A stretch of 64,000 nt of DNA from a virus, in the IMG/VR virus record IMGVR_UViG_3300045988_130745; one strand, given 5' to 3'. A program made the position numbers and the translations under genes. This document shows, piece by piece, positions 2 through 60,132 of the stretch; position 1 is the first letter of the stretch; the number at the start of each line of letters is the position of its first letter. The notes beneath the pieces are model-generated. The model was given only the letters and a program-made list of their open reading frames with translations. It was not told the origin of the DNA and searched no databases.

Positions 2-268
2 CGTTCTCATATAGCCCACCTTGTGCAAAGGCTAAGAGATGAAACTCAATGTGAAAATTATTGGGTTTGGTCTGGACAGAAATTTGAAGATTTAATTCAA
101 AAGCCAGAGGGTAAACTACTTTTGATGTTTGATGTGTTGGTGGATGGTCCTTTTGAACTCGATAAAAAAGATCTCAGTCTGGCTCACAGAGGTTCTTCAA
201 ATCAGCGAATAATTGATTTAAAGCATTTCTTTAAAACGGGTGAGGTCGAATTATGGAGTGAATCTTAA
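2..268 (+). CDS. nrdG: anaerobic ribonucleotide reductase activating protein, C-terminal fragment (5' end outside window)
   Basis: Frame is open from the window edge to TAA 266-268. The tail VDGPF...AHRGSSNQRIIDL resembles the conserved NrdG C-terminus. Confidence 0.6.
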   Translation, partial: RSHIAHLVQRLRDETQCENYWVWSGQKFEDLIQKPEGKLLLMFDVLVDGPFELDKKDLSLAHRGSSNQRIIDLKHFFKTGEVELWSES

Positions 269-591
269 TGACTTACACTTGTACAATATATTATTTGCAT
301 GATAGTTTTGTTAATTTAGCGCTGAATCGTTTTGGCAAAGAGATTGGGAAAAATCTTGATATGCCATTAAGTGCGACAATAGATAATGCCACATTTGCAC
401 TTGATGATAACAAAAGAATTGTTGTTTAGACAATTAAAGGTTTATCTCGTGGCTCAATAGCGAGTTGCAGGTCAACCTATGCTATTGTTGAAGGCGCACT
501 TATAACACCAGAAACAGTGGATATTTACAATCAGTTGACCCAAACAACGGGTGAAATATTCCTTTGGGAAGAAAGAGAGTTGCAGGAGTAA
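268..591 (+). CDS. hypothetical protein
   Basis: ATG 268 overlaps the preceding stop (TAATG). 107 codons run to TAA 589-591 with one in-frame TAG at 427-429. Absent from the standard-code track because of that TAG. Confidence 0.55.
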
Positions 592-599
592 TGACGTAA

Positions 600-1670
600 A
601 TGGGAATTTTGTTCTCTGTAATAGGAGCACTCGTTGGCGCAATTATAGTTTATATTATAATGCGCAGGCGCCAAGAAGAAATTAAACAAATCAATAGGGC
701 GCAATTAGAAGCGTTTGATAAAGAAGTTCAAGAGAAAAAGGTAGTTACTTAGCGTTTAATAGATTCTTATAATGAATCACTTGAGCGTGCAAAACAAGAA
801 AATAATAAGGCGTTAGAACACGCGAGACGATACAATCAAGAACAATTAAAGCAAGTTCAATCAGATTATTATAATAAAGTTCAAGATTATACTAATCAAG
901 CGGAAGAACAAAAGACCTTTCTAAACAGGGATATTGCCGAGCTTCAGGCTAAGATTGTTGCTCTTGAAAAAGACTATGATCATAAGATTGCTGATTTTGA
1001 TAGGCAATGGTAGTCTTTGATGAAAGAACGCCGTGAAGCGATGGATAAATTAGAAGAAGAGAATTTGGATGATTACCTTGATTAGCAAATGTCTCTTGAA
1101 TCTCAATATCAAAAGGACAAAGCAAAACTTTAGTCTGAGATCAATAATTTATCTGCTTTGCGCGCGAGCCTTATTGAAGCGCAAATTCGTGAACAAAAGC
1201 TAAAAGATGAACAAGACTTTTATCGTATTCATCTTTCTATTGATGCTCAAGAGGATATTGATAAATTACTTCGTTTTGCTAAAGAGTGCCACAGTCAACA
1301 ACCTTTGCGCAAATTGATTTGGAGTGAATACTTCTTAAAGCCTTTCGGTGAAATGGCAGGACGTATCCTTGGTAAGGACAAAATTTCTGGCATTTACAAG
1401 ATTACTAATATTAAAGACGGTAAAATATATATTGGGCAGAGTACGGATATAAAAACTCGTTGGTCCAATCATATCAAAGCCGCGCTCAAAATAGATTCAA
1501 TAGCTCATTCAAGAGTCCACGATGCGATGGGTGACGAAGGTATTTGGAACTTTACTTTTGAGTTATTGGAGCAATGCCCAAAGGAGAAGCTAAATGAGCG
1601 AGAGAAATATTACATAGAATTTTATCAATCAAATATCTATGGATATAATAAGACTATTGGTGGAGCTTAA
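600..1670 (+). CDS. membrane-anchored coiled-coil protein with C-terminal GIY-YIG (T5orf172-like) nuclease domain
   Basis: ATG 600 is in frame with track ORF 1158..1670 across TAGs at 750, 1011, 1083 and 1131. N-terminal hydrophobic helix MGILFSVIGALVGAIIVYII, Q/E/K-rich middle, C-terminal GIYKITN..GKIYIGQS..RWSNH. Confidence 0.7.
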
Positions 1671-1996
1671 TGGATATTCTTAATAAAATGTACTTTCAAA
1701 GTGGGACTGCGAGATTAAGAAATGACGGACTTATTGATTTGTCTCTTAATTATATATACAATAATGGAAAAGAAGATAAGTCTTTTAGTTTAAAAGGAGT
1801 TGTCGATAATCCGGTTGTTACAATCGAGAATGCCTATCGCGGCCCGAAAGAAAGAACCGCAGAAATGTTGACTGATAACCGTAATTATAAACTAAACGGA
1901 ATTGTTTCCTTTGAATTTATAACAGATAAAGGCACAGGTAATCTTTATACGCTTGAAATAGCAGATATTCAAAAAATAGAGGGAATTGATAAATGA
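1670..1996 (+). CDS. hypothetical protein
   Basis: Track ORF. Its start overlaps the upstream stop (TAATG coupling). Confidence 0.65.
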   Translation: MDILNKMYFQSGTARLRNDGLIDLSLNYIYNNGKEDKSFSLKGVVDNPVVTIENAYRGPKERTAEMLTDNRNYKLNGIVSFEFITDKGTGNLYTLEIADIQKIEGIDK

Positions 1997-2322
1997 CTTA
2001 TTCTGATATATTAAAAGAAATGAAACACCACGGAATGGATGATTTTTGTATTGAGCGTTATGAAGTTGAAGCAGTTGCGCGAAATAAATATCTTATTCAT
2101 ATCATTTTTGATAGCGAAAAGAAAAAAATGTATTTGACTGCACGGGCGACCGATATAATTGGATCTCATACATTTGAATCTTTTTCTGCTTTTGGTGGGT
2201 ATAATTCAGAGAAGATAATGGAATGCCAAGGTCCAATTATTAAATTTGGACTGGAAACTTCTATTGATTTTACTAAAGACAACCCCGTCACGATTTATTT
2301 CGTTGACAAGGAGAAAAACTAA
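1993..2322 (+). CDS. hypothetical protein
   Basis: Track ORF with a 4-nt ATGA overlap on the upstream gene. Confidence 0.65.
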   Translation: MTYSDILKEMKHHGMDDFCIERYEVEAVARNKYLIHIIFDSEKKKMYLTARATDIIGSHTFESFSAFGGYNSEKIMECQGPIIKFGLETSIDFTKDNPVTIYFVDKEKN

Positions 2323-3152
2323 TGCAATTTGATAATACAAGAACTTTTAATTGGGAAGGTGCTTTTCATGGTATGAGAGCGCCACTTGAATCTTGGGCAA
2401 AATCGGATAGTATGTTTGGTCTTGCGCCAATGGAAAGTACATATGATTTAGAGATGCTAAATACTTGGCGTGATAAAGAATACCCTGACGGATTTAACAC
2501 AGAACAAGAAAGGACCGCTTATAATGCAGAAAAAATTTCATGGATTGACAATAATGGCATTTTGTGTTGCGATAATAATTGCATGGAGTTTGCTTTTCTT
2601 GGACCGGCGGACTTGGATCTCGCTCAGCGATTAATTAAAGCTGGCCCAGAGCATAGAAAATTTTTGCGTCAGATTTTTGTTTCGGCTTATATTAGTCTAC
2701 CTTTGTCTATATGGAAATAGCTTGATACATATAAAATTGGTACTGTAACCAATTCTACTTCTACTATGCATAAAATTCAGTCTAAGCCGCTTACAAGAGA
2801 AAGCTTCGAGATTGAACAAATTCCTTATGAAGAACAGGAAGAAATGGAACAACGTGATGGTATTTACTGTGCGGGTGAACTAAGTGATTTGCTTGATGAA
2901 ACAATTCAAACTTGTGAAGATTTGCGCAGAGCATTTAATCAAACAAAAGATAAACGCTATTGGCGTAAGCTAATTGAATTGCTCCCTGAATCTTATCTCC
3001 AAGCGCGTGAATATACCTTAAACTATGAGGTTCTTCGTTCTATTGTTCATCAGCGCAAAGGGCATAAGCTAGGCGAATGGCAGAAATTTATTCATTGGGT
3101 TCATACTTTACCTTATGCAGAGGAGTTAATTTTCTATGATGGAGACAAGTAA
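2322..3152 (+). CDS. hypothetical protein, possible ThyX-like fold (tentative)
   Basis: ORFs 2322..2720 and 2766..3152 share a frame across TAG 2718-2720. WKQLDTYKIGTVTNSTSTMH weakly resembles the ThyX RHR..S..S.RY region. Confidence 0.55.
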
Positions 3153-3153
3153 T

Positions 3154-3495: not shown

Positions 3496-3698
3496 CTCGG
3501 AAGAGATTTATAAAGTCTATGATGGCAGTTGGCTGGCAGCGAAACGAAGCTAATGATTACGCTCGTTTAAAGCCGAGTTATCTTTCTTATTCTCGCTATT
3601 GGAGTATCTATTGTCAATGGATTAAAAAGATGAGATATGCGCTCGAGAACGATTCGACTGAGGAATTTATAAAGGAGTATTATCTTGTCACAGATTAA
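3492..3698 (+). CDS. hypothetical protein, MT(R/K)KRF family
   Basis: Track ORF. The N-terminus MTRKRFIKSMM is shared with four other small ORFs in the window. Confidence 0.6.
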   Translation: MTRKRFIKSMMAVGWQRNEANDYARLKPSYLSYSRYWSIYCQWIKKMRYALENDSTEEFIKEYYLVTD

Positions 3699-5145: not shown

Positions 5146-6987
5146 ATGCCGGGTAAAACACTAAAAACTAGAATACAAAACAAAGTTGACTCATTAGCTA
5201 ACTTACAAGCTAATAACCCCTATATTCTTGCGGGCGAGCTTGTAACTGCTTACACTACCGTTGGAGTTAAGCAAGAGGATGGTAATGTAGTTCAAAAGAG
5301 AGTCGCTTATATCTATGTAGGTCCGGGCAACTTTAACGACTTGTATCCTATTGTAGGACCTTCTGCCGATGTTAAGGCTTGGGCCAAGGTCGATAATTTT
5401 GTCGATGTCGTTATTGAAAAATTAACTAAGACTGACGAGAAAGGCGACATTGCTGAGAATGATACAGTTAATACAATGATTAACCGTATCAATAATAACT
5501 TCGCGCAAATTAAAACTGATATGCCATCTAAGACTTCTGATTTAACCAATGATGGCGAAGGTGCTGAAGTTCCTATTAAGGATTTCATTACTGGTTATGA
5601 GTCTTATTAGTTTGTAAGTCGAGATTCAGTTAAAAATTATATTAACACTTTTGGTTTGCAAGACCTAGAAGAAATCAAAAAGAAACTTGCCGAACTCGAA
5701 AAGAAAGTTGATGATAATTTAAAGGCGATTGATGAACGCTTTAAGTTATATTATACTAAGACTGAAATTAACGATTTACTTGCTGGTTATCTTAAAGGTG
5801 TTTAGATTGGCGATAAAGATGGCGGAGTTGTACTCAGTCCTGCTTCTACTGTGGTCACTTCTGGACAGCTTTGGACTCAGATTAAAGATGCTTCTCAAAA
5901 GGATATTGAGAAGATTGCTGACGCAGCTGCTTCTACTGCTCTCAGTCAAGCTAAGACTTATACTGATACTAAGTTAAGTGAATTTATCACTATTTCTTAT
6001 AAAGGCCCTTATGATTCTTATGCGGCTTTACTTGCAGACAATGTTGATGGCGGTAAAGCTGGTGTCATTTATCTTGTAAGTCATAACCATAATGATAATG
6101 ATAGTTATGATTCAACAGATAGTGATATATTTGATGAGTACATTTGGGTTACACGTCAAGATGGTGGGCAACCTGGCTTTGAGAAAGTTGGTAATACAGA
6201 TGTTAAGTTAAGCAGCTATCTCCAGGCCGCACTCAAAGAAGATAAAACTGGGGTTCTTGAAGGCGACGAAGGTTCTGTCTCTAAAATTGAGGTTGTTGAA
6301 GATCCTGTTGGTAGTGGCAACAAGTTCTTTAAAGTAACTTATAAGACTTTAATCAAGAGTGAGACATTTGATGCTGGTAAGGTTGCTGTTGGTTTTGGTA
6401 ATGGTGCATTAAAATCATCTGCTTTAGTCAATATTCCTTTAGCTGGTATCGTAGCAGGTAGCGCAGAATCTGATATTAACGAAACCACTACATTGGGTGG
6501 GGCAATTAGAAACTTAGAAACCAAGATTGCTGATGCAAAAGCCGACGGTGTTAAAGAGGTTGATATTGCTACCGATGGCGGCGTTGATGTTAGTGGTGGC
6601 CCGATTACAAATAAGGGCACATTAAAGGTTAGCCACTCTTTAAGAGCAACTGCAACTTCTGCTGTCAGTGATACTGTTGGTTCCGCAGATGAACGCACTT
6701 ACGTTAAAGAAATTGCTCTCGATAAATATGGTCATATTGTTAATGTTACTACTGGTAAGGAAACAAATGTTGATAGTTATGCTACCGGTGGTTCATTTGC
6801 TGCGGATAATACAAAAATTGAATTAACCGTTACTGGCACTGGTCCTAATTTCAAAACATTTAAAGCAGGACTTAATAAATTGCCTGCTATGTTATTATCT
6901 CAAACTGATGCCGAAGATGATTTTTTAGTACTTTATTGTGGCACCAGTAGCATTTTAGCTTCAACAGAACAAATCAATTATACCTGA
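5146..6987 (+). CDS. tail fibre protein
   Basis: ORFs 5146..5610 and 5851..6987 share a frame across TAGs 5608 and 5803. Long Thr/Ser/Gly/Asp-rich fibre-like sequence. Confidence 0.7.
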
Positions 6988-6999
6988 TAAGGTGGTGAG

Positions 7000-7404
7000 T
7001 TGATGCTCAAGGCTAGAATACAACTTAAAAAAGACACCAGCGAGGCTTGGCGCATCAATAATCCTGTTCTATTGGATGGCGAAGCTGGTTATGAATCAGA
7101 TACAAATTTAATGAAAGTTGGCGATGGGATTCATCGCTGGCTTGAATTAGACTATACAAACTCTGGTGCAACTGCGATAGCAAGTACAGCTAACTATGCT
7201 ATTAATGCTGGTGCGCTAGGCGGAACTTCTGCGGCTGATTGGGCTAAGAAGTTTGACAATTATGTTTTAAATACTCGAATTGAAGCCGTTATGTCAACTG
7301 CTTCAGCCGCGGACAAAATACCAACCTCAATAGCAGTTACTAATTGGGTTAAGTCGCAAAATTTCGCGGGTGCCGGTGATATTACTACTTGGGAGGACTT
7401 TTAA
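7000..7404 (+). CDS. tail fibre-associated protein
   Basis: Track ORF. The N-terminal IQLKKDTSEAW..NPVLLDGEAGYESDT..MKVGDG motif is common at phage fibre/hyaluronidase N-termini. Confidence 0.65.
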   Translation: MMLKARIQLKKDTSEAWRINNPVLLDGEAGYESDTNLMKVGDGIHRWLELDYTNSGATAIASTANYAINAGALGGTSAADWAKKFDNYVLNTRIEAVMSTASAADKIPTSIAVTNWVKSQNFAGAGDITTWEDF

Positions 7405-9650
7405 TGGCTAATAAATTATTAAAACCAAAGAGAGGTAGGGTAGAGAACCTGCCTAAATTGGCTGTTGAAGATGGCTCTCTTATTTTTGCTTATGATACCA
7501 AATCTCCCACTAGTACTGTTTTAGTTGATGTTGGAGAAACTAGATATGAATTATCTGCGGCGACGGCAAAGAAAGCAGATGATTCTAATGCTCTTGGCGG
7601 CAGTAGTCTTCAAAATATTGTTGACAAGATTGACAATGCGACGGGTGATGGAACTGCCTTTACTGGTTTAGATACTACTACTAATAATAAAGTAAAACTG
7701 ACAAGAGCCAATGGAACTACAGTTGAAAAAACAATTAATAATGTTTCTAATGCTTCGACTGCTGATTACGCAAAAGTAAGCAATAAAATTGGAACTGGGA
7801 CTATTGGTTCGTCAACTAAACCAGTTTATATTAATGCTGGTACCCCTACTGCGGTTAGCTCTATCCCATCTACTTTTGTTGCAGCATCGCAAATAAATGG
7901 TATTAATCTTGATACTTTGCGCACGCCAGGTATGTATTGGGCTGGTGGTGGCAATACTAATACTAATAAGCCCACGGGTATTGATGCTTTTGGTTTAGAA
8001 GTTCTTTAGAGTGCGGCCGGATGGTATACTCAAATTTGCTATGCTTCTGATGATTAGGAGAAACAATTCGTTCGTTATTATGATGCAGGAACAAAAGTTT
8101 GGAAAGATTGGGTTGAATAGAACCGTTTAAACACTAAAACTCAAAGTGGTTACGCCCCTGCACCGAATGCGGCAAATAAAGTTTATCGTACTGACGCGAG
8201 TGGCAATCCTGGTTGGGGCACATTAAACGACAGTTCTATTGGTAGACTTGCGTCTACTGTTACTTTTGGTGACGGTGGTCCTGCGGTAATTGATTAGAAT
8301 AATGAAACTTATCGCCAGCGTATCAATATTTTCGATAATGCAACAGCTAATGACGCGGTATTTAGTTTCTAGCAATCAACAGATGCCGGTAAGACCTATA
8401 AAGATTTATTTGCTATTAATGATAATGGTACTGTTATTGCTGGTACATTTCAAGGCGCACTTAAAGGAACAGCAGATTATTCAAAGAACTCTGGCGCTCT
8501 TGGTGGCAGTAGTTTAAAAAATATTATTGATAAAATTAATAGTTCTACTGGTGATGGTACCGCTTTTACTGGTTTAGATATAACTATAAACAATAAGGTT
8601 AAATTAACCAGAGCCAATGGTAGCACAGTTGAAAAGACAATCAATAATGTGTCTAATGCTTCAACTGCAAACTATGCTAATAGCGCGGCAAATGCTTCGA
8701 CAGCAGAGTATGCTAAAAGCGCACCACCAACCGTGAATTCTGTCAATTATGTCCGAGTTTATAATAGTTCCAATGTCGGTGGAAGCAATACTGTAACTGT
8801 CAATGATTTATCAAAGAAGCATTTTGCTCAAGGCATGATTAATTCTGCGACTGATAATCCATTAGGTAAAGCTGGCTGGGTTCATGTGCAAAGTATGGCT
8901 TGGGCAGATGGTAGTGATTAGTGGGCTTCTCAAATTGCTTTTGATGTTCAAAATGGTACTGGCGCTTACTATCGTTCTTCTAACGGCAGTGGACATTTAG
9001 CTGGACGTGACTGGAATAAATTCCTTGATAGTTCAAATTATACAGAATATGCTGCTGATAGAACTGCTCTTGTAAGCGCTTTGGCATCCAGCTCAAAAGT
9101 CACTTTTACAAGGGCAAATGCGGGAACATTTGCTATCAATATTAACTATGTAGAAAATGCTTCGACAGCAAATAATGCAAACAAGCTAGGCGGACTTCCA
9201 TCAAGTGAGTACGCCCTTAAAAGCCAATTAAGTGGTGATATTAATGCTTTGTCTGCTAAACGCTTGCCATCTTATCAATCAATCTCTGTAGCTAACTCTT
9301 TCTTCTATCGTTACGGTACAGCTGGTAATACTTCTGATGGCGGAGCTTGGACTGGATTTCCTTCAGCGATTCTCTACAATGCCGATTCAACTGTTAATGG
9401 CTTCGGCAATGCGCTTTTTCAAAAGAAAGTTGGTGTTCTTCACTTAGCAGCTGGTTCTTCTGCTCATGACCTTGTATTTCAAGCTGGAGGTACCAATGGC
9501 GGTATTGCTTATGTTGCAACTGGACGTAATCCCGCATACATTCTCGACACTCTTAACTACAAAGATAAAGCATATACATTTAACAAATTAACTGCAACCA
9601 GTACATTTACGGCAACTGGTGGCGTAGTTATTGACGGGGGAAGTTATTAA
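7404..9650 (+). CDS. large tail fibre protein with internal repeat modules
   Basis: ATG 7404 (RBS GGGAGGA). ORFs 7389..8009, 8649..8921 and 9081..9650 join in one frame across TAGs 8007, 8055, 8118, 8295, 8370 and 8919, checked codon by codon. Confidence 0.75.
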
Positions 9651-10453
9651 TGGCCTTACAATTAATGGGCGCAGCGCCTACGGCAAAAGAAATCGGAAGT
9701 TACTTGGACTTCCACGTGGACGCGAATAAAGGTGCGAAAGATTATGATGTAAGACTTCAAGCTAAAGATAGTGAACTTGATGTTATTGGTTCAAAAGGCG
9801 ATTCAAGTACTATCCTCAAAGTTGGTAGCAATTTTATGGCTTGGACAGATTCCGAAGGTGGTAATATTCGTATCTATTCTCCATCTCAAGCCTATTTTTA
9901 TGAGATGGATGCATATAATCATAGTTTAAGGATTGGTGGTAGAAAAGTAAGCAATGGTGCTTTTAAAAGTATTACACTTCTTGACACTGATGGCTATTCA
10001 ACTTTCAATCGCGCCTATAATGCTGTCTATAATGATTATGCTGAATTTTTCCCTCGTGGAGAAGACACAGAGCCTGGTGACATCATCGCTCTTGATGATT
10101 CTGTTGACCAAGAGCAATACGTTAAAGCCACTATTGATTCTTGTCGAGTCGTTGGAATTCATTCTAACGAATATGCTTTTTTAATTGGTGGTGAAAATCC
10201 ACCGGAAGGACAAGATTTTTACTCTTACAATATTTCTAAATATATCCCAGTTGGTTTAGCAGGACGTTGTAGAGTTAAAGTTCTCGGTCCCATTCGCAAA
10301 GGTTAGGATATAATTCCTACTTCTATCCCTGGTGTTGGACGTGCGTTTAATAAAGAAAAAGATAATCCGTCACTTCTTTATTTGTCTGTTGGTTTTGCTG
10401 TTGAAAACTCAACAGACGAGTCAATCAAATTAGTCCGCGTGAAATTAAAGTAA
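9650..10453 (+). CDS. tail fibre/appendage protein with possible C-terminal intramolecular-chaperone domain
   Basis: ORF 9650..10306 continues past TAG 10304 to TAA 10451-10453. DYAEFFPRGE...GIHS...PVGLAGRCRVKV resembles autoproteolytic chaperone domains of fibre/appendage proteins. Confidence 0.6.
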
Positions 10454-10464
10454 GGTGAAAATCA

Positions 10465-11403
10465 ATGGCTATTCAAATGAAACGCCAAGGTGGAGGGGTA
10501 TCGAATAATGCAACTGCGATTATTCCTACTGCTCTTGCTTATGGCGAAATTGGCATTGATAGTGCGGGTAATATTTATTGCGGCAATGGTAAAACTCAAG
10601 TTACCTCACAAGTTAAAAATGCCGCTAATGTTCTTTTTTTATATAAAGGGACCTATAAGAAAAACGGGTGGATTGAGAATAGCGTAAATAGTACTTGGTC
10701 TTAGACAGTTACAATTACCGCTCAAGATGGTGGTCCTGCAATTAAAGCAGATTTTACATTGTCTGCGCCCATGGCTGCGTAGACGGACAACCGTGAAACT
10801 AATGAGCAACGTCAAGATGCTCTTAGCGTAATTGCTGCAGGCAAATGTACTCCAAATGATAGCGGTCAAATCACTTGTTTGGTTTTTGAAAAACCATCAA
10901 TAGACCTTGATGTTTATTGGTATGCGCGATTGTCTGGCGGTTACGATTCAATGGTAGATGCACAAGGGGTCGGTTCTATTGTTGATTCTGCTGTAAATAA
11001 AGCAATAGATGATTTAAAATCAAATATTTCTTCTATTGTTGATAATGCAATTAATAGTAGTAATGTATATACTAAAATCAATGGTGTTTGTGCAGTTTAT
11101 CGCGCGAAGTATTTAGCTTCAGGTTGGATGGCAGTATCTTCCGATGGTTATAATTACTATCAAGAGGTAACTACTTCTAAGGTATCTGATGGTAGCGCCA
11201 ATTTGAATGCGTCAAGTATATTCTTGACTCCTGGCTTCTTCTTACCGAGTGGCACAGCATCAACTGATGCAGCTTATGCACAAGCAATGGGTATTATCAA
11301 TGATGGTTATTCAACAAGTGGTACAAATAGAATTATGACCTATACTACAGCTAAACCAATTAGCGATATATGGGTTTATTGGGTGGTTAGAGAAGCGGTA
11401 TGA
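10465..11403 (+). CDS. tail fibre-like protein
   Basis: ORFs 10465..10704 and 10879..11403 share a frame across TAGs 10702 and 10780. Confidence 0.65.
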
Positions 11404-48467: not shown

Positions 48468-48470
48468 CTA

Positions 48471-48499: not shown

Positions 48500-48529
48500 T
48501 ATTATAGAAAATGAGAGAGGAGATAAGGA

Positions 48530-49081: not shown

Positions 49082-49687
49082 ATGGACAAGATAAAAGAAG
49101 GCACTTCACTGAGTATTGTTTTCGCGGACTGGTGTGAAATAACCGGAGTAAGTCAATCTCTCTTTTGTGCGGTTTGGGAATTATTCAAAGACAAGACGGA
49201 TAAAGGTGGAAATCCCTATATTAGTCATTTGATTCAAGTTGCGCAAAATGTTAAGCCGCAGTTTGCACGAATTGCTTTCTGCCACGATGTGATTGAAGAT
49301 TGCGGAGTGGACGAAAAATGGCTTATGAATCCCGATTTTGGTTTGACGGAATACGAGATTAAAGCCATCCGCACACTTAGTCGTCCAAAAGGCATGACTT
49401 ATTCTGATTATATCTTGAGCATTATGAATACTGAAGACCTTGGTATCATGTATGTTAAGATGGCTGATCTTTTGGATAACATGAATCTCAATCGTTTGCG
49501 TGATATGTCAAAAAAAGACATTGATCGTGTAACTGAACTTTATATTCCCGCTTACGAACATCTGTCTACTAAGATTTGGCAGATTATCCGAACTGCTAAA
49601 ATTAACGAGGATATGGCAGATATTTATATGGATTTGCTTTCTGACGAAAGATTTGATGAAGAGAAAGGAAAAGAGTATGGATTTTAA
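49082..49687 (+). CDS. HD-domain hydrolase (SpoT/Mesh1-type alarmone hydrolase-like)
   Basis: Track ORF. GGNPYISHLIQVAQ....ARIAFCHDVIEDC matches the H...HD..ED signature of RelA/SpoT-type HD domains. Confidence 0.6.
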   Translation: MDKIKEGTSLSIVFADWCEITGVSQSLFCAVWELFKDKTDKGGNPYISHLIQVAQNVKPQFARIAFCHDVIEDCGVDEKWLMNPDFGLTEYEIKAIRTLSRPKGMTYSDYILSIMNTEDLGIMYVKMADLLDNMNLNRLRDMSKKDIDRVTELYIPAYEHLSTKIWQIIRTAKINEDMADIYMDLLSDERFDEEKGKEYGF

Positions 49688-50342
49688 TAAGTATCCGAAA
49701 ATCGAGACTTGTTTTCAGCGTTCGCTTGAGACTAAGAAGCTGCTTGATGGTGTCTGGCGCTCGGACGAGCTTCAGTACCTCAAGGATTGTGAGTGGATTT
49801 GGACTGAGAAGGTTGATGGTACCAACATCCAGATTCGTTGGGACGGGCATCGAGTTGAGTTCGGCGGGCGTACCGAGCGTGCGAACATTCCTCAACCGCT
49901 GATGGATTACCTTGAGACCACTTTTGGTGGAGAGGTTAATGAGGAGATTTTCGAGCAGCTCTTTGGCGAGACTGAGGTTGTTCTCTTTGGTGAGGGTTAT
50001 GGTCCGAAGATTCAGAGTGGTGGCGGTTATCGCAAGGATGTTAGCTTTATTCTGTTCGATGTGAAGATTGGCAACTTCTGGCTTCTGCGTGACAAGGTTG
50101 AGGAGATTGCTAAGCAGCTTAACATTGATGTGGTTCCGCTGATCGGTTATGGGCCTATCCAGTTTGCTATTGATTTTGTTAAGGAGCATCCGATGTCGCG
50201 GGTTGCGCAGAATAACGGCGGTAGCGGTTGTTACATGGAGGGCTTGGTTGGTACTCCAACCGTTGGATTGCTCCGTCGTAATGGCGAGCGCATCCAGGTA
50301 AAGATTAAGTGGAATGATTTTAAAGAGTTTGTAGAGGAGTAA
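49677..50342 (+). CDS. RNA ligase (KxDG nucleotidyltransferase)
   Basis: ATG 49677 after GAGAAAGGAAAAGAG, inside track ORF 49653..50342. MDFNKYPKIE..., adenylylation motif EKVDGTN, and FGEGYG. Confidence 0.7.
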   Translation: MDFNKYPKIETCFQRSLETKKLLDGVWRSDELQYLKDCEWIWTEKVDGTNIQIRWDGHRVEFGGRTERANIPQPLMDYLETTFGGEVNEEIFEQLFGETEVVLFGEGYGPKIQSGGGYRKDVSFILFDVKIGNFWLLRDKVEEIAKQLNIDVVPLIGYGPIQFAIDFVKEHPMSRVAQNNGGSGCYMEGLVGTPTVGLLRRNGERIQVKIKWNDFKEFVEE

Positions 50343-50345
50343 AAA

Positions 50346-51293
50346 TTGATTAATTTTATTTTGGTTATTATTGGATTGGCAGTACTGGTTATTGGTGCGA
50401 TTGTCGCATTCAATAAAGAGTCGGTGATTGGAGCTATTACCTCGGTCATCCTTGGTGCAGCAATTGCCTTGTTTGGTATGTCGTTTGTTATCATTCCTTC
50501 TGGCTACACTGGTGTAAAAACCACTTTTGGTCAGATTGCGGAAGAGACTTTGCCGAATGGTTTCAATTGGAAGACTCCTTTCATTGAATCTATCGAGATT
50601 GTAAATAACAAGCAGCAGGATGCTGGTTTCGCGCTGAAAGATTCTAAGATTTGGGGCGAGACCTCTGAAAAGGTTCCTGTTTATATGGCAGATGTAACTG
50701 TTACTTATCAGATTGATAATGAAAAGTCCGCGTGGATTTATGCTAACGTCAGCGACTACAAGAGTCAGCTGATTAGTGACGCAATGGTCGCGAGCGCTCT
50801 AAAAGATGCTGCTGTTCAGTTTACTGCTGAACAGGTAACTGTTCGCTCTAATATTGAGCCTGCTGCGCAGAAAGAACTCCAGGAATCTCTTGATAATAAG
50901 TATGGCCAGAATGTCGTTCATATTCTCAAAGTTGTGATTAACAATATGGATTTTGAAGATAGTTACAACGAAGCTATCAATCAGAAGAATCTTGCCTCGA
51001 AGCAGGCAGAAGCTCAGGCTATTCAGAATCAGATTGAAATTGATAAAGCAACTAAAGATGCTGAAACTCAGCGTATTGCCGCTGAAGCTCAGGCAACTGC
51101 TGAAACTGCAAAAGCACAGGGTGAAGCTGACGCAATTCGTATTAAGGCAGAAGCCGAAGCTGAAGCAAACCGTAAGCTGTCTGAAAGTCTAACTGATAAT
51201 GTTTTGCGTAATAAGCTGTATGATAAGTGGAACGGTGAACTCCCCAAGGTTAGTAATGATTCCGCGCCGCTTGTAAGTATTCCTCTTGAATAA
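50346..51293 (+). CDS. SPFH/band-7 (prohibitin-like) membrane protein
   Basis: Track ORF (TTG start after GGAGGAG). N-terminal TM, YTGVKTTFGQI...FNWKTPFIESIE, and a C-terminal A/E/Q-rich coiled coil. Confidence 0.7.
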   Translation: MINFILVIIGLAVLVIGAIVAFNKESVIGAITSVILGAAIALFGMSFVIIPSGYTGVKTTFGQIAEETLPNGFNWKTPFIESIEIVNNKQQDAGFALKDSKIWGETSEKVPVYMADVTVTYQIDNEKSAWIYANVSDYKSQLISDAMVASALKDAAVQFTAEQVTVRSNIEPAAQKELQESLDNKYGQNVVHILKVVINNMDFEDSYNEAINQKNLASKQAEAQAIQNQIEIDKATKDAETQRIAAEAQATAETAKAQGEADAIRIKAEAEAEANRKLSESLTDNVLRNKLYDKWNGELPKVSNDSAPLVSIPLE

Positions 51294-51300
51294 AATGAAA

Positions 51301-51327
51301 GGGTTGGAGTAAAATCCAACCCTTTTT
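51301..51327 (+). terminator. Rho-independent terminator
   Basis: GGGTTGGA/TCCAACCC stem, loop GTAAAA, TTTTT. Confidence 0.75.
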
Positions 51328-51330
51328 CTA

Positions 51331-51359
51331 TTGACTTTTAAGGATAGGTATGATATAAT
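51331..51359 (+). promoter_or_regulatory. conserved promoter module P15
   Basis: TTGACT 51331-36, 17 nt, TGA TATAAT 51354-59, then TATTATAGAAAAT. Confidence 0.75.
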
Positions 51360-51389
51360 TATTATAGAAAATGAAGGAGGATGTTAAGA

Positions 51390-51614
51390 ATGATTAACTG
51401 GATTGTGGCGCTATTGACTACTTTCATGGCGTTGGATTTTTTCTTTATTACAGTTAGAATGACGCTATCTGAGATTCATCGTGCGCAAGCGTCGAAAAAT
51501 CCATGGTGGCTTAATTTTGTTATTGTGGTATTGATGCTTATGCTTTGGGGCATAGCTATTTTTGCTCTTGGGGCGACTGCAAGTGTTCTTTTTCATTTAA
51601 TGATTGGAGTTTAA
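51390..51614 (+). CDS. small membrane protein
   Basis: ATG 51390 lies 9 nt after GAAGGAGG, inside track ORF 51381..51614. Two hydrophobic helices. Confidence 0.6.
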   Translation: MINWIVALLTTFMALDFFFITVRMTLSEIHRAQASKNPWWLNFVIVVLMLMLWGIAIFALGATASVLFHLMIGV

Positions 51615-51615
51615 A

Positions 51616-52251
51616 ATGGATTGGTTTTTCTTGGGATTAGTTATTCTTGGTAGTGTTTGGGGTTGGACAAAAGAGTCTAAGGAAGTTTTTGGACAACATA
51701 CAATTCAAGAGGTAACAAAAGAAAGATTTGGACGTTTGGTTATTGTTTGCGGTTGGGGTGGATTACTTTGGTGTGCCGCTGAAGTATCTAAAGAACCAGG
51801 AGCTTTTTCGGCTATCCTTCTTTCGTTTCTTATTTATGATTTCTTTTATTTTGGATTTATGTGTGCGAAGTCTAGTGGTGAAAATACAGTAATTCGCAAT
51901 TATAAAGACCAACGTCGATTTTCCAATGGTTATGATTGTATTTCTTACAAAGTTGTGAAAAATATGTATTCAATGCATCCCGAACTGTTTAAATGGGATT
52001 ACAATAGTATCTATCCTGCATTTAAAGGATTAGAATTTAAAATGACTTATTTTGACTTGCTCCGTTTTTCGCTTTTGTATAATAGTCCAAAAATGAAGAA
52101 GAACGGTGTTGTCTCTCGGTTGATGCTTGAACAGCTTGAGAAAGACATGACGCGCATTCAAAAGGAAAAAGAAAAATCTATTCAAGAAGTAAATCATGCT
52201 TCTACTGAATTAGCTAATATTATGGCTTCAATGAAAGGAGAAATGAAGTAA
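51616..52251 (+). CDS. membrane protein, paralog of 52251..52904
   Basis: ATG 51616 in track ORF 51604..52251. N-terminal TM segments. Shares a C-terminal ...MY..HP..F...Y......F..L.F....+ coiled-coil layout with the next gene. Confidence 0.6.
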   Translation: MDWFFLGLVILGSVWGWTKESKEVFGQHTIQEVTKERFGRLVIVCGWGGLLWCAAEVSKEPGAFSAILLSFLIYDFFYFGFMCAKSSGENTVIRNYKDQRRFSNGYDCISYKVVKNMYSMHPELFKWDYNSIYPAFKGLEFKMTYFDLLRFSLLYNSPKMKKNGVVSRLMLEQLEKDMTRIQKEKEKSIQEVNHASTELANIMASMKGEMK

Positions 52252-52904
52252 TGATTGGCTGGACGATTTTTAACTGTCTTTGCTTGGGAGTCTGCTTGAT
52301 TTTTATGTTTGGCTGTGACAAAGATTATTTGTCTAATCTGCTGAAATACAATGCAGCAACAGCAATTTATATTTTTTCTTTCGTTAATGCTTGTCGAACT
52401 TTACCATGGGAACTTCCCGATGATGTGATGACTGGTTCTCAATTCCTTTGTATGCTTGCAGTTTGTGGTTCCGCTATCGCTTATGTTTCTTCATTCTTTG
52501 CAATGTCAATGGGTGATGGTTTACCGAATTTTAAGTTTATTGAAAGATACCTTAGTATTGATGAAAACAATCCACGAGTCAATTACAAACTGTTTAAACA
52601 AATGTATGCCCTTCATCCCGATAAGTTTCATTTTTGTAATTACAGTTGGGATTACAATTTTATTGATTTTAGTTTAAACTTTTTCGATTATTTGCGCGCT
52701 TCGTTTTTAATTGAAAACGAAGAAAAAGGTCCTAAGAGTCGAGACCGCCGCAAAGATTATCAGCGATTGGTTTCTGAAATGCAGGCTGACCTTGAAAAAG
52801 ATCTCGTGGCCGCGCGGAAAGAAAAAGAACAGGCTTTTCAAGAGATAGAAGATGCAACAAAAGATGCACACGAACTTTTTAAAGCTCTTTCAAAATATAA
52901 CTAA
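52251..52904 (+). CDS. membrane protein, paralog of 51616..52251
   Basis: Track ORF with start/stop overlap. Confidence 0.6.
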   Translation: MIGWTIFNCLCLGVCLIFMFGCDKDYLSNLLKYNAATAIYIFSFVNACRTLPWELPDDVMTGSQFLCMLAVCGSAIAYVSSFFAMSMGDGLPNFKFIERYLSIDENNPRVNYKLFKQMYALHPDKFHFCNYSWDYNFIDFSLNFFDYLRASFLIENEEKGPKSRDRRKDYQRLVSEMQADLEKDLVAARKEKEQAFQEIEDATKDAHELFKALSKYN

Positions 52905-52915
52905 TTAATTTTTCC

Positions 52916-52948
52916 CCGCTCAGATTAAAAATCTGGGCGGTTTCTTTT
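52916..52948 (+). terminator. Rho-independent terminator
   Basis: CCGCTCAGAT/ATCTGGGCGG stem followed by TTTCTTTT. Confidence 0.7.
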
Positions 52949-52949
52949 A

Positions 52950-52978
52950 TTGACTTTTGAACAAAGTTATGCTATAAT
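52950..52978 (+). promoter_or_regulatory. conserved promoter module P16
   Basis: TTGACT 52950-55, 17 nt, TGC TATAAT 52973-78, then ATTTATAGAAAAT. Confidence 0.75.
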
Positions 52979-53010
52979 ATTTATAGAAAATGAAGAAAGG
53001 AGATTAGAAA

Positions 53011-53502
53011 ATGAAGATTAAAGTTCTTCCGCGTGCTGAGTGTTTTGCTGCGGCACATGGTTGGGGAATTGAGTATGGTATTGCAGATTTTGATGTTCCT
53101 ACTTTGATTATTTCAATTTCTAGTTATGATACTCCTATTCCCAACGCTCTTGCTATTGATGCTAAGACAAAGCCTGACATCATTAAGCACGTTGAGTATT
53201 GTCAGTTTGACGATATTGATTGCAAGGAGCCTGTTAAAGGCTTGATTCCTATGCGCGATGTAGATGCGCAGAAAATCGTTCGTGCGGTTGAACAATGGAA
53301 AGATAAAGTTGAACAGATTGTAGTCCATTGTGATGCTGGTTATTCTCGTAGCCCTGCCGTTGCAGCTGCTTTGGCTCTTGCTTTAAATGGTAGGGGCGCA
53401 GATGATGAGTTCTTTGTTAAAGGCAACTATTGCCCGAATATGCACGTTTATAATACTATGCTGAAAGAACTGGATGCGCGAGGTTATTTCAATGACCTAT
53501 GA
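53011..53502 (+). CDS. Cys-based phosphatase-like protein (CX5R motif)
   Basis: Track ORF. VVHCDAGYSRSPAV fits the HCxxGxxRS active-site loop of PTP/dual-specificity phosphatases. Confidence 0.6.
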   Translation: MKIKVLPRAECFAAAHGWGIEYGIADFDVPTLIISISSYDTPIPNALAIDAKTKPDIIKHVEYCQFDDIDCKEPVKGLIPMRDVDAQKIVRAVEQWKDKVEQIVVHCDAGYSRSPAVAAALALALNGRGADDEFFVKGNYCPNMHVYNTMLKELDARGYFNDL

Positions 53503-53863
53503 AGATCTTTGGTTATATGTAAATAATCAATATACAAACGCAATGCAAGCTGGAATGTTGGGTACTGACGTTGTGATTTCAAAAAAAGATTACTTTTCTC
53601 TTTTAGAAATTTGTAACGGATGGGATATACGATGTACGCCAGTCATTCTTGGCTTTAATTCTGTCACATATATTGAGAAAGATGGAAAATTAGACCCAAA
53701 ACCTCATTGCACATTGCTTGAAGGTATTCAAAGTGCTTGTGATGAATATTTAAGAGTAATCCTTGAATGGGACGAAGATAATGCTAGTGAAGATGAAGTT
53801 TTTGAAATCATCTGGTATCCCGAAGATGAAAGTGAGGACGAAAATGACGAGAAAAAGATTTAA
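53492..53863 (+). CDS. hypothetical acidic-tailed protein
   Basis: ATG 53492 lies 9 nt after GAGG, inside track ORF 53474..53863. Confidence 0.55.
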   Translation: MTYEDLWLYVNNQYTNAMQAGMLGTDVVISKKDYFSLLEICNGWDIRCTPVILGFNSVTYIEKDGKLDPKPHCTLLEGIQSACDEYLRVILEWDEDNASEDEVFEIIWYPEDESEDENDEKKI

Positions 53864-54092
53864 GAAGCTAATTCGTGGAACCTTCACTGAATTTTCTCCT
53901 TTAGTTAAAACTCTTGAACAGCAGAATATGATGAACCACTTGTCTGAAACGGCAATGAAAGTAAAGATTTCACCTCTTGCTGCAAGCAAATGTACTTATC
54001 ATTCTTATAAACAACTTTATCATCTGTATATTTTTGCTATTGGTTCAACTTTATTTTCTGAGGAGGATTATTATGACACGAAAGAGATTTGA
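53844..54092 (+). CDS. hypothetical protein, MT(R/K)KRF family
   Basis: ATG 53844 inside track ORF 53763..54092 gives MTRKRFKKLIRG. Confidence 0.55.
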   Translation: MTRKRFKKLIRGTFTEFSPLVKTLEQQNMMNHLSETAMKVKISPLAASKCTYHSYKQLYHLYIFAIGSTLFSEEDYYDTKEI

Positions 54093-54258
54093 AAAATTGC
54101 TCCGTGCCGAATATACTTGTCTTTGGGTACGCGCTCCGCTTAGTTTTAGTGATTCGATGCCCATTTCGCGGATGTATCATAACATCCCTAAGATGAGCGC
54201 GTTTGCTCGAAAAATGGGTGGATATGATACTCTTTATGACTATCTGACTAACCCCTAA
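54073..54258 (+). CDS. hypothetical protein, MT(R/K)KRF family
   Basis: ATG 54073 after AGGAGGA, inside track ORF 53977..54258. MTRKRFEKLLRAEY. Confidence 0.6.
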   Translation: MTRKRFEKLLRAEYTCLWVRAPLSFSDSMPISRMYHNIPKMSAFARKMGGYDTLYDYLTNP

Positions 54259-54271
54259 AGGTTATAATATT

Positions 54272-54478
54272 ATGACAAGAAAACGCTTTGAAAAGTTACT
54301 TCGCGCATATTATACCGAATTATGGATTGAAGCCCGTGCAAATTGCCGTCCATTTATGCGAATGGATCAGGTATATAGATTACTTCCAGACATGAGCGAT
54401 GAAGCGCGTAAAGTTGGTAGTTATAAAAGCATGTATGAAATGATGACTTTTACGAGTAAAGAAAGGAAGAACTATTAA
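54272..54478 (+). CDS. hypothetical protein, MT(R/K)KRF family
   Basis: Track ORF, MTRKRFEKLLRAYY. Confidence 0.6.
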   Translation: MTRKRFEKLLRAYYTELWIEARANCRPFMRMDQVYRLLPDMSDEARKVGSYKSMYEMMTFTSKERKNY

Positions 54479-54834
54479 TGTATATGAAGTCTATGCGCGT
54501 TAAAGACGTGAATGGTAATGAAGTTGTGGTTGGTGGTGAAGAGATTTTCCGCGCCTATAAAGATTTGGTTCAGTGGTTTATGGAGACTCGTTTTGTTTGG
54601 ATTTTCAACAATTTCGGTGAGCGATTTAACAGAACTGCAATCAAGCATTGCGCGCGGAAATGTGCCGAAGTCGTAACTATCAACCCTGAAACGACTTCTA
54701 CTTCTGAGCCAGATGATTTTGAAATGGCTGTATTTAATAAATACAGAAATGGCGATTTCGATTGGCTTAAAGATTGGGAACCGGAAACTAAAGTGATTAT
54801 TATTAAAGAAGATAATAAGTCTCAGGAGGACTAA
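54478..54834 (+). CDS. hypothetical protein
   Basis: Track ORF. Confidence 0.6.
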   Translation: MYMKSMRVKDVNGNEVVVGGEEIFRAYKDLVQWFMETRFVWIFNNFGERFNRTAIKHCARKCAEVVTINPETTSTSEPDDFEMAVFNKYRNGDFDWLKDWEPETKVIIIKEDNKSQED

Positions 54835-55360: not shown

Positions 55361-55525
55361 ATGAATTGGATGGTTTTTGCAAGTGTTCTTTTGATTGCGG
55401 CGTTAATTATGAATGTACTTGCGCTTGCAGTTTATGGTTTTTTGTGGTTTAATTTTATTGTTTGTATTGCAGATGCAATTTTGCTAATTGCAAATTTTGT
55501 ATTCTTTTTCTTTAGGAAAAAGTAA
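55361..55525 (+). CDS. small membrane protein (54 aa)
   Basis: ATG 55361 directly after the upstream stop, to TAA 55523-25. Almost entirely hydrophobic. Below the track size cutoff. Confidence 0.5.
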   Translation: MNWMVFASVLLIAALIMNVLALAVYGFLWFNFIVCIADAILLIANFVFFFFRKK

Positions 55526-55962
55526 TGGCGCAAAGGAATTTCTACCCGAAAAAAATTTTATATAGCTAGAAGCCACGAAAACGTATTGTTTTCAACGAAA
55601 AAGATGGTTCTCTTGGAGAACAACGGATTCGGAAAATCCTTACGCAAAATCTATGTAATTTTGTCGAATAGAAGACTTTCGATGGATTAAAAGATTAGAA
55701 GCCGCTTAGATTTGATTTTTCATTAGAGTTTAATGGTAAGGTTGTATGTTTAATTGAGTATCAAGGAGAACAGCATTTTAAAGCTGTTGAGCATTTTGGT
55801 GGGATGGAAGGATTTTAGTTACGCCAAAAGCATGATGCAATGAAATTTCAATATTGTCAATAGCATAAGATTCCGTTGTTTTATATAAGATATGATGAAG
55901 ATTTAGATTAGCGGCTCGCGCAAATAATTCAATGGTATACAGTTTTTAAATGGATGGTGTGA
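55525..55962 (+). CDS. PD-(D/E)xK / Vsr-like putative homing endonuclease, TAG-dense
   Basis: ATG 55525 to TGA 55960-62 with 6 in-frame TAGs. RFDFSLEFNGKVVCLIEYQGEQHF...KHDAMKFQYC..HKIPLFYIRY resembles the D..(E)xQG.QH core of Vsr-like nucleases. Invisible in the standard-code track. Confidence 0.55.
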
Positions 55963-58937: not shown

Positions 58938-58956
58938 ATAAGATAGGTGAATTAAA

Positions 58957-59274
58957 ATGGTGTTTCATAGATATATAAATGCATTGCAAGCAGAAAAAAT
59001 TTCTGAAGCAATGAAAGATACTCCTCTGGTTGATAGTAAATTAGATTATGATATACATGATTCATATCTTGGATACCTTGAATGCGAAATTACAGAAGCC
59101 GCATTAAAAGGGAATGATCAGTTTAAAGCAATTTTATCAGATGATCTTGTTAAGAAAATGGATAAAATGGTTGAGTTTTTAAAAAACGAAGGCTATAAAG
59201 TAACATATGAGAAGTTTGATGATTTTAGAAGTGATCCACCTTATGCTGTTGGCGAACTTAAAATAAGTTGGTAA
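58957..59274 (+). CDS. tandem paralog array member 7
   Basis: Track ORF. ...NEGYKVTYE...ELKISW. Confidence 0.6.
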   Translation: MVFHRYINALQAEKISEAMKDTPLVDSKLDYDIHDSYLGYLECEITEAALKGNDQFKAILSDDLVKKMDKMVEFLKNEGYKVTYEKFDDFRSDPPYAVGELKISW

Positions 59275-59291
59275 TTAAGAAAGGAAATTAA

Positions 59292-59540
59292 ATGTTTTTT
59301 CGAGCAGAATTAACTGATTGGTTAAAAGAGAATGGTGATTGTAAAAGGGTAAGGCATTTTCAAAAGTACCAAAAAACTTTTGACCAAGCGATGGATGATG
59401 TTTTTGACGCAGCCATCCATGGGAAATCTAAGGTTTCATTTTCTTGCTCAAAAGAGTATGCTAGTGAACTTGAAGATAGATTTATTTATTTAGGTTATGA
59501 AGCTAAGTGGATAAATGGTCAGTTATTAATTGAGTGGTGA
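59292..59540 (+). CDS. tandem paralog array member 8
   Basis: Track ORF. ...YLGYEAKWINGQLLIEW. Confidence 0.6.
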   Translation: MFFRAELTDWLKENGDCKRVRHFQKYQKTFDQAMDDVFDAAIHGKSKVSFSCSKEYASELEDRFIYLGYEAKWINGQLLIEW

Positions 59541-59545
59541 GTTAA

Positions 59546-59833
59546 ATGTTATTTAATGCTGATTTTGCACGGGCTTGTATCGAACCAACAGAAGTTTTCT
59601 CTATTGAAGATATTTTTGAAACTTACGCGCGGCAGAATATCATTGATGGTTTAATGCGAGAAATTTATGGAGAAGCACGAAATAAAGGTCGTCAGATAAA
59701 TTTTGACATTGGTGTTGGCGAGACTACTGATTGGGTTTTGGCAGAATTAAGTGACTATGGATATGGAGTTACATCAAAAGAAATTTGTATTGATGGAGTG
59801 GGACCGTTTAAGAGAGTAACGGTTCAATGGTGA
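59546..59833 (+). CDS. tandem paralog array member 9
   Basis: Track ORF. ...DYGYGVTSK...RVTVQW. Confidence 0.6.
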   Translation: MLFNADFARACIEPTEVFSIEDIFETYARQNIIDGLMREIYGEARNKGRQINFDIGVGETTDWVLAELSDYGYGVTSKEICIDGVGPFKRVTVQW

Positions 59834-59838
59834 TTTAA

Positions 59839-60132
59839 ATGAGATTTTCAGCTGATTACGCGAGAGCGTGCATGGACAAGTCAGATAAAATTGGCTTTAA
59901 AGAGCTTCAAAAAAATGCGACAAGATAGAGACTTCTTGATGCTGTAATGGAGCATATTTATTTTGAAGCTTTATATGAAGAGTAGTCATGCTTGACTTTT
60001 TTAGTAAATAAGAAAGATAAAGAAGACCTTTGTGACAGCTTAAAGTTATATGGTTTTAAAGTTAAAGAAATTCCACTAGATGACAGAAGTCATCTTTTTG
60101 AAAATACAGTAAATTTGTTAATTTCATGGTAA
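59839..60132 (+). CDS. tandem paralog array member 10
   Basis: ATG 59839 to TAA 60130-32 with 2 in-frame TAGs. ...LYGFKVKEI...VNLLISW. Not in the track. Confidence 0.5.

Follow-up and report, generated by a model that had tools for sequence, protein, structure and literature searches.

We analysed a 64,000-nt stretch of viral DNA (IMG/VR record IMGVR_UViG_3300045988_130745; the window, meaning the whole of this stretch) in which the triplet TAG recurs inside the frames of long genes. An earlier inspection of the letters alone, here called the sequence-only reading, had proposed that this phage uses TAG throughout as a sense codon, with glutamine as its meaning. The window has a G+C content of 37% and nearly all of its genes lie on the + strand, where open reading frames (ORFs) abut or overlap slightly when the stops are limited to TAA and TGA. 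The genes and regions on which the argument draws are given below, and the labels early and late are assigned throughout from promoters and gene content.

268 to 22644, + strand: tail-fibre and structural (late) block, 28 non-endonuclease genes, 18 of them with TAG, 37 TAGs
600 to 1670, + strand: GIY-YIG homing endonuclease, 4 TAGs; its catalytic YIG-Q-S uses CAG (1437-1439)
7389 to 9650, + strand: tail-fibre-like gene of 753 codons, TAGs at 8007, 8055, 8118, 8295, 8370 and 8919
13183 to 15540, + strand: collagen-repeat fibre gene with in-frame TAGs at 13687 and 14407
18228 to 20651, + strand: collagen-repeat fibre gene and target of a diversity-generating retroelement (DGR), with G-I-TAG-G at 18378
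25881 to 26651, + strand: GIY-YIG homing endonuclease, 6 TAGs including YIG-TAG-S at 25938
28797 to 29543, + strand: GIY-YIG homing endonuclease within a tRNA cluster, 6 TAGs including YIG-TAG-S at 28863
36058 to 41406, + strand: peptide-maturation cluster resembling those for ribosomally synthesized and post-translationally modified peptides (RiPP-like), 14 in-frame TAGs, host-type promoter at 36031
55527 to 55962, + strand: HNH-type homing endonuclease (phrog_559), greedy ORF 55462-55962 with 7 TAGs

Raw stop-to-stop ORF lengths do not discriminate between genetic codes because ORFs grow whichever stop codon is dropped (on the minus strand most of all when it is TAA), and we therefore employed a greedy gene call and a frame-aware test instead. 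Over the region from 0 to 22 kb, the greedy call covered 96% of the DNA with 30 genes when TAG was treated as sense, compared to 79% with 45 gene fragments under code 11 and 84% when TGA was treated as sense, well short of the coverage obtained with TAG. The comparison of coding densities thus favours TAG as sense. For the frame test, a codon-usage model was trained on TAG-free ORFs and every stop triplet on the + strand was scored; a triplet passed if both of its 120-nt flanks scored best in the triplet's own frame. The test was passed by 51 of 678 TAG, 19 of 1721 TAA and 7 of 1629 TGA triplets, and the TAA and TGA passes are mostly junctions of adjacent same-frame genes.

We then defined a credible set of ~95 genes, taking out tRNA-overlapping ORFs and the minus-strand region beyond 60.3 kb. 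These genes contain ~86 in-frame TAGs, spread over ~34 of the ~95. The sequence-only reading had counted about 70 TAGs that join adjacent same-frame ORFs; the joining is upheld by the frame test and by coverage, while the count was too low. Both of its worked examples were recovered, with all six TAGs located in the tail-fibre-like gene (which it began at 7404; the start is 7389 or 7404) and the two expected TAGs in the fibre gene at 13183-15540. It had also stated that stitched genes never end in TAG, which is true by construction. Independently of that, no TAG in the credible genes lies opposite a TAA or TGA in the relatives. The stop codons of 94 credible genes are TAA in 64 cases and TGA in 30, and the last TAG falls within 25 codons of the stop in just 8 genes, whose sites that vary among relatives (11940 and 57648) are occupied there by CAA or CAG. 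That TGA continues to terminate, as had been proposed, is borne out by its low frame-test rate, by the lack of a comparable coverage gain and by its place at the end of 30 of the 94 genes. TAG is a sense codon in this phage, without use as a terminator.

Another reading takes the in-frame TAGs as true stops, the genes being fragmented, decayed to pseudogenes or wrongly assembled. In its favour, the standard-code annotation of a related contig truncates a radical-SAM gene to 259 aa. However, the frames are interrupted by TAG alone, and not by TAA or TGA. The same TAGs are seen in up to 16 aligned sequences per site, originating from independent assemblies. The coding signal continues over the TAGs, as do Pfam domains such as YcaO (residues 61-399) and GIY-YIG, and TAG alternates with glutamine codons between strains. 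We regard the fragmentation of these genes by true stops as effectively refuted.

The exchanges between strains also identify the residue. Comparing DNA codon by codon with related strains is independent of any translation table, and the relatives are close (the 613-aa protein encoded at 5146-6987 is 95-98% identical at the protein level in IMG/VR relatives). Where relatives differ opposite the window's TAGs, they carry CAA at 8 sites and CAG at 7, giving 15 of 21 site-codon types; the other six are among AAA, TTT, CGG, TGG and TAT. In the opposite direction, the window's codons facing a TAG in a relative are CAA in 15 and CAG in 9 of 35 cases, or 24 of 35 glutamine codons. We repeated the comparison with protein guidance over related loci (at least 60% identity, 86 sites). 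TAG was kept at 82 sites, and the alternatives were CAG (10), CAA (9) and other codons at no more than 2 each, so that CAA and CAG make up 19 of 28 site-codon types. The change between TAG and CAA is common between strains; at the window's CAA codons, TAG is the second commonest alternative, behind CAG, despite the two nucleotide changes that separate them. The single-step TAG neighbours AAG, GAG, TTG, TCG, TGG and TAT each occur at most once.

Conserved positions in two enzyme families give the same answer. The residue following Y-I-G in the GIY-YIG family is Q in 119 of 119 homologues (34-50% identity), and a TAG in a relative's radical-SAM maturase stands at a position that is Q in 120 of 120 homologues, although both protein-level counts are partly circular because the public collection already translates TAG as Q in these contigs. 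Over 41 distinct GIY-YIG copies from related phage loci, the codon after Y-I-G is CAA in 16, TAG in 10, CAG in 5 and another codon in 10. Of the three YIG-Q-S motifs described in the sequence-only reading, the CAG at 1437-1439 and the TAG at 28863 were placed correctly, and the TAG given as 25935 lies one codon further on, at 25938. The collagen triplet G-I-TAG-G that it cited is indeed present at 18378, the other repeats of the same gene being written G-I-CAA-G, and another TAG of this gene (20289) is CAG in a relative. Similarly, in the tail-fibre-like gene the TAGs at 8118 and 8370 are CAA in relatives and the TAG at 8295 is CAG. The codon exchanges and the invariant positions together show, as far as can be read from sequence, that the change is specific to TAG and that TAG stands for glutamine.

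Two tRNA arrays lie in the window:

25779 to 30586, + strand: tRNA cluster 1, with Cys, Leu(AAG), Asn, Lys(UUU), Tyr, Asp and Gly(UCC)
42279 to 43467, + strand: tRNA cluster 2, with Glu(UUC), Ile, Glu(CUC), Thr, Lys(CUU), Arg(ACG), Arg(UCU) and an odd tRNA reading CCU

The window contains 15 tRNAs (14 found by ARAGORN and one by Rfam) together with tRNA-like fragments, one tRNA fewer than the 16 that had been claimed. None of the 15 has the anticodon CUA according to ARAGORN or Rfam, and a scan of the whole window for a YUCUARN loop closed by a 5-bp stem gave no match. The earlier remark that the window lacks a CUA-anticodon tRNA stands. Three suppressor candidates were rejected. The tRNA at 43391-43467, to which ARAGORN assigned '???', has a bulged U in its anticodon stem and the loop UUCCUAA, and its Rfam alignment gives the anticodon CCU (Arg); the same odd call recurs in six other contigs checked, two of them from diverged strains. 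The tRNA found by Rfam only (42279-42351) has the anticodon UUC. A tRNA-like element at 3498-3566 of locus L007, which joins the window at 99.97% identity, has no normal anticodon arm and no CUA.

A tRNA with this anticodon, for which a search beyond the window had been advised, was found in the relatives. We scanned IMG/VR with a repeated promoter motif of the window to obtain loci from related contigs and ran ARAGORN on those loci, which returned a CUA tRNA in three of them. The neighbouring radical-SAM protein was then looked up in public assemblies to reach contigs in ENA/Logan. An identical 76-nt tRNA(CUA) is carried by 3 IMG/VR and 18 ENA/Logan contigs, that is, by 21 of the 21 related contigs examined. 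In the shared flank these contigs match the window's strain at 93-96% identity (the radical-SAM variants P0122 and P0123 belong to sister strains at 93-96% identity), and the tRNA is without any substitution. Its position is constant among the ENA/Logan loci, with the cluster order His, Leu(CAA), Gln(UUG), Gly, Ser, a GIY-YIG gene, Trp and Sup(CUA), and the gene order of the sister strains is conserved into the window's upstream flank. Because the tRNA lies ~7.3 kb upstream of the start of L007, its place is ~15.7 kb before window position 1, or ~16 kb upstream of the window start.

With every stem paired and CUCUAAC as its loop, the tRNA(CUA) reaches 31.5 bits in the Rfam tRNA model, where the threshold is 29. 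Upstream of it lies a host-type promoter (TTGACT-17-TATACT, extended by a TG), and downstream lies an intrinsic terminator made up of a GC-rich hairpin and a T-run. These data show that the lineage carries a conserved, predicted tRNA(CUA) that stands as a separate unit under a host-type promoter of its own. The lineage also encodes a tRNA-Gln(UUG), which fits the CAA preference of the late genes.

The suppressor tRNA bears on two other explanations. In the first, TAG is still a stop, full-length proteins arise only by inefficient near-cognate read-through and the TAGs act as attenuators. The window itself has no suppressor tRNA, and the passages of Borges et al. (10.1101/2021.08.26.457843) used here report suppressor tRNAs in just 40% of TAG-recoded genomes, both of which would be compatible with read-through. 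Nevertheless, every one of the 21 related contigs carries the dedicated tRNA(CUA) unchanged, leaky read-through across 6-13 TAGs per gene would yield negligible full-length protein, and there is no TAG terminator anywhere. Read-through of a true stop is very unlikely.

In the second, TAG encodes another residue (pyrrolysine, Trp, Tyr, Leu, Ser, Lys or Glu). ARAGORN labels the CUA tRNA 'tRNA-Pyl', a few sites exchange TAG with TGG, TAT, AAA or CGG, and the sequence of the suppressor does not prove a glutamine identity. On the other hand, CAA and CAG lead the exchanges in both directions, and TAG occupies two invariant glutamine positions. With regard to pyrrolysine, the tRNA(CUA) folds as an ordinary cloverleaf whose anticodon stem has 5 bp, whose variable region has 4 nt and whose D-loop is normal, which differs from the architecture of pyrrolysine tRNAs, and no synthetase or biosynthesis gene for it is present among the Pfam-annotated genes of the flanks read. 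We give a residue other than glutamine very little chance.

The recoded codon is not used evenly across the window. Its density and its share of the glutamine-type codons differ between gene classes as follows (genes, with TAG-containing genes in brackets; TAG per 1000 codons; shares of glutamine-type codons):

Tail/fibre block 268-22644: 28 (18); 5.5; TAG 15%, CAA 73%, CAG 12%
Homing endonucleases (3 GIY-YIG, 1 HNH-type): 4 (4); 22.4; TAG 32%, CAA 59%, CAG 8%
Peptide-maturation cluster, 36-41.4 kb: 5 (4); 8.1; TAG 24%, CAA 71%, CAG 5%
All other genes: 58 (8); 1.55, an overestimate because several TAGs precede the actual gene start or fall in questionable ORFs; TAG 5%, CAA 41%, CAG 54%

The difference in TAG use between the late block and the remaining genes is significant (Fisher P = 7e-5), as is the difference in glutamine codon usage between gene classes (chi-square P = 5e-21). 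The late block, whose products include collagen-repeat fibres, members of tail-fibre-related families and a protein resembling Mtd_N, has 181 CAA, 31 CAG and 37 TAG codons. At the other extreme is a TAG-free block:

44144 to 54834, + strand: RtcB, HD-domain protein, RNA ligase, Band_7 protein, phosphatase and others

Glutamine is mostly CAG within it (the gene at 50346-51293 has 18 CAG and no CAA). The HNH-type endonuclease gene at 55527-55962 is the TAG-densest gene amid a region that is otherwise TAG-free; the TAG at 55513 falls upstream of the start of the 145-aa gene in the public collection. The glutamine codon choice itself flips between the classes, with CAG leading in early-type genes and CAA leading, with CAG scarce, in late genes. 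This flip is consistent with a replacement of CAG by TAG together with the use of the phage's own tRNA-Gln(UUG).

Promoters are distributed unevenly as well. The + strand has 19 near-perfect copies of TTGACT-N14-TGnTATAAT, and 18 of them fall within 23-62 kb, including those scattered through the TAG-free block; the late block has only one consensus host-type promoter, at 12067. Nine of the 19 share 8 more bases (ATTTATAG):

23363 to 23399, + strand: one copy of the repeated promoter TTGACT-N14-TGnTATAAT-ATTTATAG, present nine times in the window

The TATAAT elements of the nine ATTTATAG promoters start at 23386, 25099, 25692, 28221, 31298, 33658, 41787, 43564 and 52973, and each promoter stands ahead of TAG-free genes or tRNA clusters. 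Among the consensus promoters at large, two are informative exceptions: the early promoter at 25669-25705, which leads a tRNA-Cys and then the six-TAG endonuclease gene at 25881-26651, and the promoter at 36031, which leads the TAG-rich peptide cluster. These consensus TTGACT/TGnTATAAT promoters are unlike those of Bacteroidetes. The recoded codon is concentrated in tail, endonuclease and peptide-cluster genes, and the genes behind host-type promoters are nearly TAG-free. As to the proposal that TAG is sense throughout the phage, its sense status holds and its evenness does not, TAG use being strongly modular.

The near-absence of TAG behind host-type promoters means that unmodified host machinery could translate those genes at the start of infection. 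That the host uses the standard code we infer from one line of evidence, this same avoidance of TAG. The host could instead read TAG as glutamine itself, with the phage matching its host and no switch occurring during infection. Code 15 is not known from any bacterium. In such a host, avoiding TAG behind host-type promoters (1.55 per 1000 codons, and less after start correction) would be pointless, the phage lineage carries its own suppressor tRNA, and for such phages Borges et al. predict hosts among the Firmicutes or Bacteroidetes that keep the standard code. A code-15 host is exceedingly improbable.

The data as a whole are best explained by a code-15-type phage in which TAG is glutamine and TAA and TGA are stops, a reading to which we assign a probability of about 93%, with decoding by the tRNA(CUA) and the timing of the switch as its conditional parts. 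In the proposed mechanism, a phage-encoded suppressor tRNA with the anticodon CUA would read TAG, and a host enzyme would charge it with glutamine. Genes behind consensus host-type promoters would be translated first, by the unmodified host machinery using the standard code. The tail/fibre, endonuclease and peptide-cluster genes would yield full-length protein only once the suppressor tRNA has built up. Recoding would then act as a translational gate, including for those endonuclease and peptide-cluster genes that lie behind early-type promoters.

Several observations weigh against this explanation. The tRNA(CUA) is known from sister strains (93-96% identity) and not from a contig identical to the window. 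It shares U1-A72, G2-C71, G73 and U35 with E. coli tRNA-Gln and is without G10 and G3-C70, so that its sequence leaves a glutamine identity unproven, and it is 62% identical to the phage's tRNA-Gln(UUG) compared to 60% for other tRNAs. The circularity of the glutamine counts affects the metagenomic protein homologues, although the DNA-level counts are unaffected by it. Lastly, distant homologues show no preferred residue opposite TAG at weakly conserved positions; the solved structures of I-TevI and YcaO have T, S, K and others there, all at unconserved positions, and these alignments are uninformative about the meaning of TAG.

Recoding in this lineage may have another main role, that of locking, at translation, selfish or potentially harmful cargo whose transcription starts at early host-type promoters. 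Such cargo would comprise the endonucleases within the tRNA arrays together with a pair of peptide-maturation clusters, of which one is directly downstream of the suppressor tRNA gene, and its expression would be tied to the build-up of the suppressor tRNA and not to transcription. In the cluster within the window (36058-41406), two radical-SAM enzymes and a homologue of the YcaO cyclodehydratase are encoded along with a 186-aa ORF rich in Gly, Ser, Asn and Cys and a small ORF rich in Cys. The other cluster is known from relatives:

L045 4516 to 9573, also L148 9147 to 14204: second recoded peptide cluster, ~15 kb upstream of the window

This second cluster follows the suppressor tRNA directly, is heavily recoded and contains two radical-SAM maturases of the CXXX-repeat-target type with a 215-aa Cys-rich CXXX-repeat peptide. 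The CAG share of glutamine-type codons is 54% for early genes but only 12% for late genes and 8% for endonucleases. If cargo were locked by the suppressor tRNA, a shift from CAG to TAG would follow and would mark the genes under such control. We regard a lock on cargo as the main role of recoding as a tentative and rather doubtful proposal.

The code-15-type reading places this phage among systems that are already described. In the passages used here, Borges et al. report TAG-recoded code-15 gut phages in the Lak, crAss-like, Jade, Sapphire, Agate and related clades, with 26-71% of genes using the recoded codon, early genes compatible with the standard code and structural genes in several recoded modules of large-genome clades. 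The phage studied here resembles those phages in reading TAG as glutamine, in its share of recoded genes (~36%), in its recoded structural genes, in its standard-code-compatible early genes and in its tRNA(CUA). The same passages describe an intron homing endonuclease as one of the most strongly recoded genes of TGA-recoded Agate phages; likewise, all four endonucleases here are the TAG-densest genes. Two differences can be named. The peptide-maturation clusters are heavily recoded here and receive no mention in the passages compared, and the 'code-change module' of release factor and synthetase that Borges et al. describe was not found in the parts of the genome read. Using queries for the release-factor GGQ region and for glutaminyl-tRNA synthetase (GlnRS) motifs, tblastn gave no match in the related loci, the parts read covering all but ~100 kb of the genome. 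Lysis genes are biased toward recoding according to the same passages, and no lysis cassette was identified in the window.

Among crAss-like phages of the human gut, code 15 has been confirmed by metaproteomics, with TAG as glutamine in late genes (Peters et al. 2022, PMC9523058). The present phage belongs to a different lineage, with a genome of ~179 kb and at least 36 tRNAs, and is known from sequence alone. The Phassvirus group phage phAss-1, an uncultivated human gut phage of 136 kb, has TAG in 41 ORFs and three suppressor tRNA genes (Babkin et al. 2023, PMC10607447); the two are alike as TAG-recoded gut phages with a suppressor tRNA and differ in genome size and in the three suppressor tRNA genes of phAss-1.

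The E. coli amber suppressor supE is a tRNA-Gln with the anticodon CUA that inserts glutamine at UAG. The phage tRNA likewise has a CUA anticodon for UAG, but unlike supE it cannot be traced to any recognisable tRNA-Gln by a point mutation.

Searches for the phage elsewhere gave the following results. Megablast of 5146-15540 against GenBank phages returned no match, and tblastn of the 486-aa protein encoded at 46968-48428 against the same phages gave weak partial matches to Bacillus jumbo phages only. An exact 40-mer was absent from IMG/VR, the look-up of one minus-strand ORF gave no record, and no large terminase gene was seen in the window or the flanking loci read. The same phage is present on 178-182 kb contigs in many gut metagenomes, and dozens of blocks in the public assembly collection contain proteins identical to its own, showing that it is common.

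The phage thus matches the published pattern of code-15 gut phages; the phenomenon has been described before and its current understanding is unchanged. The main value of the result is practical, namely the correct annotation of a common gut phage. Code 11 splits about one third of its genes, including the tail fibres, the DGR target, the homing endonucleases and the radical-SAM and YcaO enzymes, and functional prediction, host-range inference and gene-cluster mining in this phage all depend on code 15. Furthermore, the consensus early promoters, the free-standing suppressor tRNA unit (in relatives) and the sharp split in glutamine codons are all legible in the sequence, and together they make the phage a convenient natural system for testing the published idea that late gene expression is timed by a code switch.

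Several neighbouring features were recorded as well. The window contains a complete DGR, whose parts are:

7000 to 7404: Mtd_N-like gene, listed with the DGR
20489 to 20635: variable repeat of 147 nt at the C-terminus of the collagen-like fibre gene 18228-20651
20992 to 21138: template repeat, 503 nt downstream of the variable repeat
21484 to 22644: reverse transcriptase (RVT_1), with an in-frame TAG at 21925 that is CAG in relatives

All 19 mismatches between the two repeats are at an A in the template.

Two genes annotated as tRNA-Leu, one in the window (26811-26886, AAG) and one in L007 (3196-3272, UAG), have the short type-I length and are without the long variable arm expected of bacterial tRNA-Leu. 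Partial matches to Y-RNA-like RNAs (YrlA) lie beside the tRNA arrays, with scores of 24.7-32.8 bits compared to the Rfam threshold of 69:

window 43021 to 43097, and L007 1528 to 1628 and 3341 to 3459: Y-RNA-like RNAs resembling permuted tRNA halves

Together with RtcB and the RNA ligase (window 44144-45406 and 49653-50342) and an upstream DUF2828/DUF7788 protein, these RNAs resemble a Ro/Y-RNA/RtcB RNA-repair module.

Upstream of the window, some strains have nrdD (anaerobic ribonucleotide reductase) interrupted by a GIY-YIG endonuclease gene, and other strains have it whole:

L149, L151 and L152, ~19.2-21.4 kb: nrdD and GIY-YIG site

The split suggests a mobile intron or the insertion of a free-standing homing endonuclease. 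On the minus strand, six more promoters of the TTGACT/TGnTATAAT type lie at 61542-63490, where they drive the small genes of a divergent block (61-63.5 kb). The 19-nt promoter motif is present in many other IMG/VR phage contigs, and several of these loci also carry a CUA tRNA.

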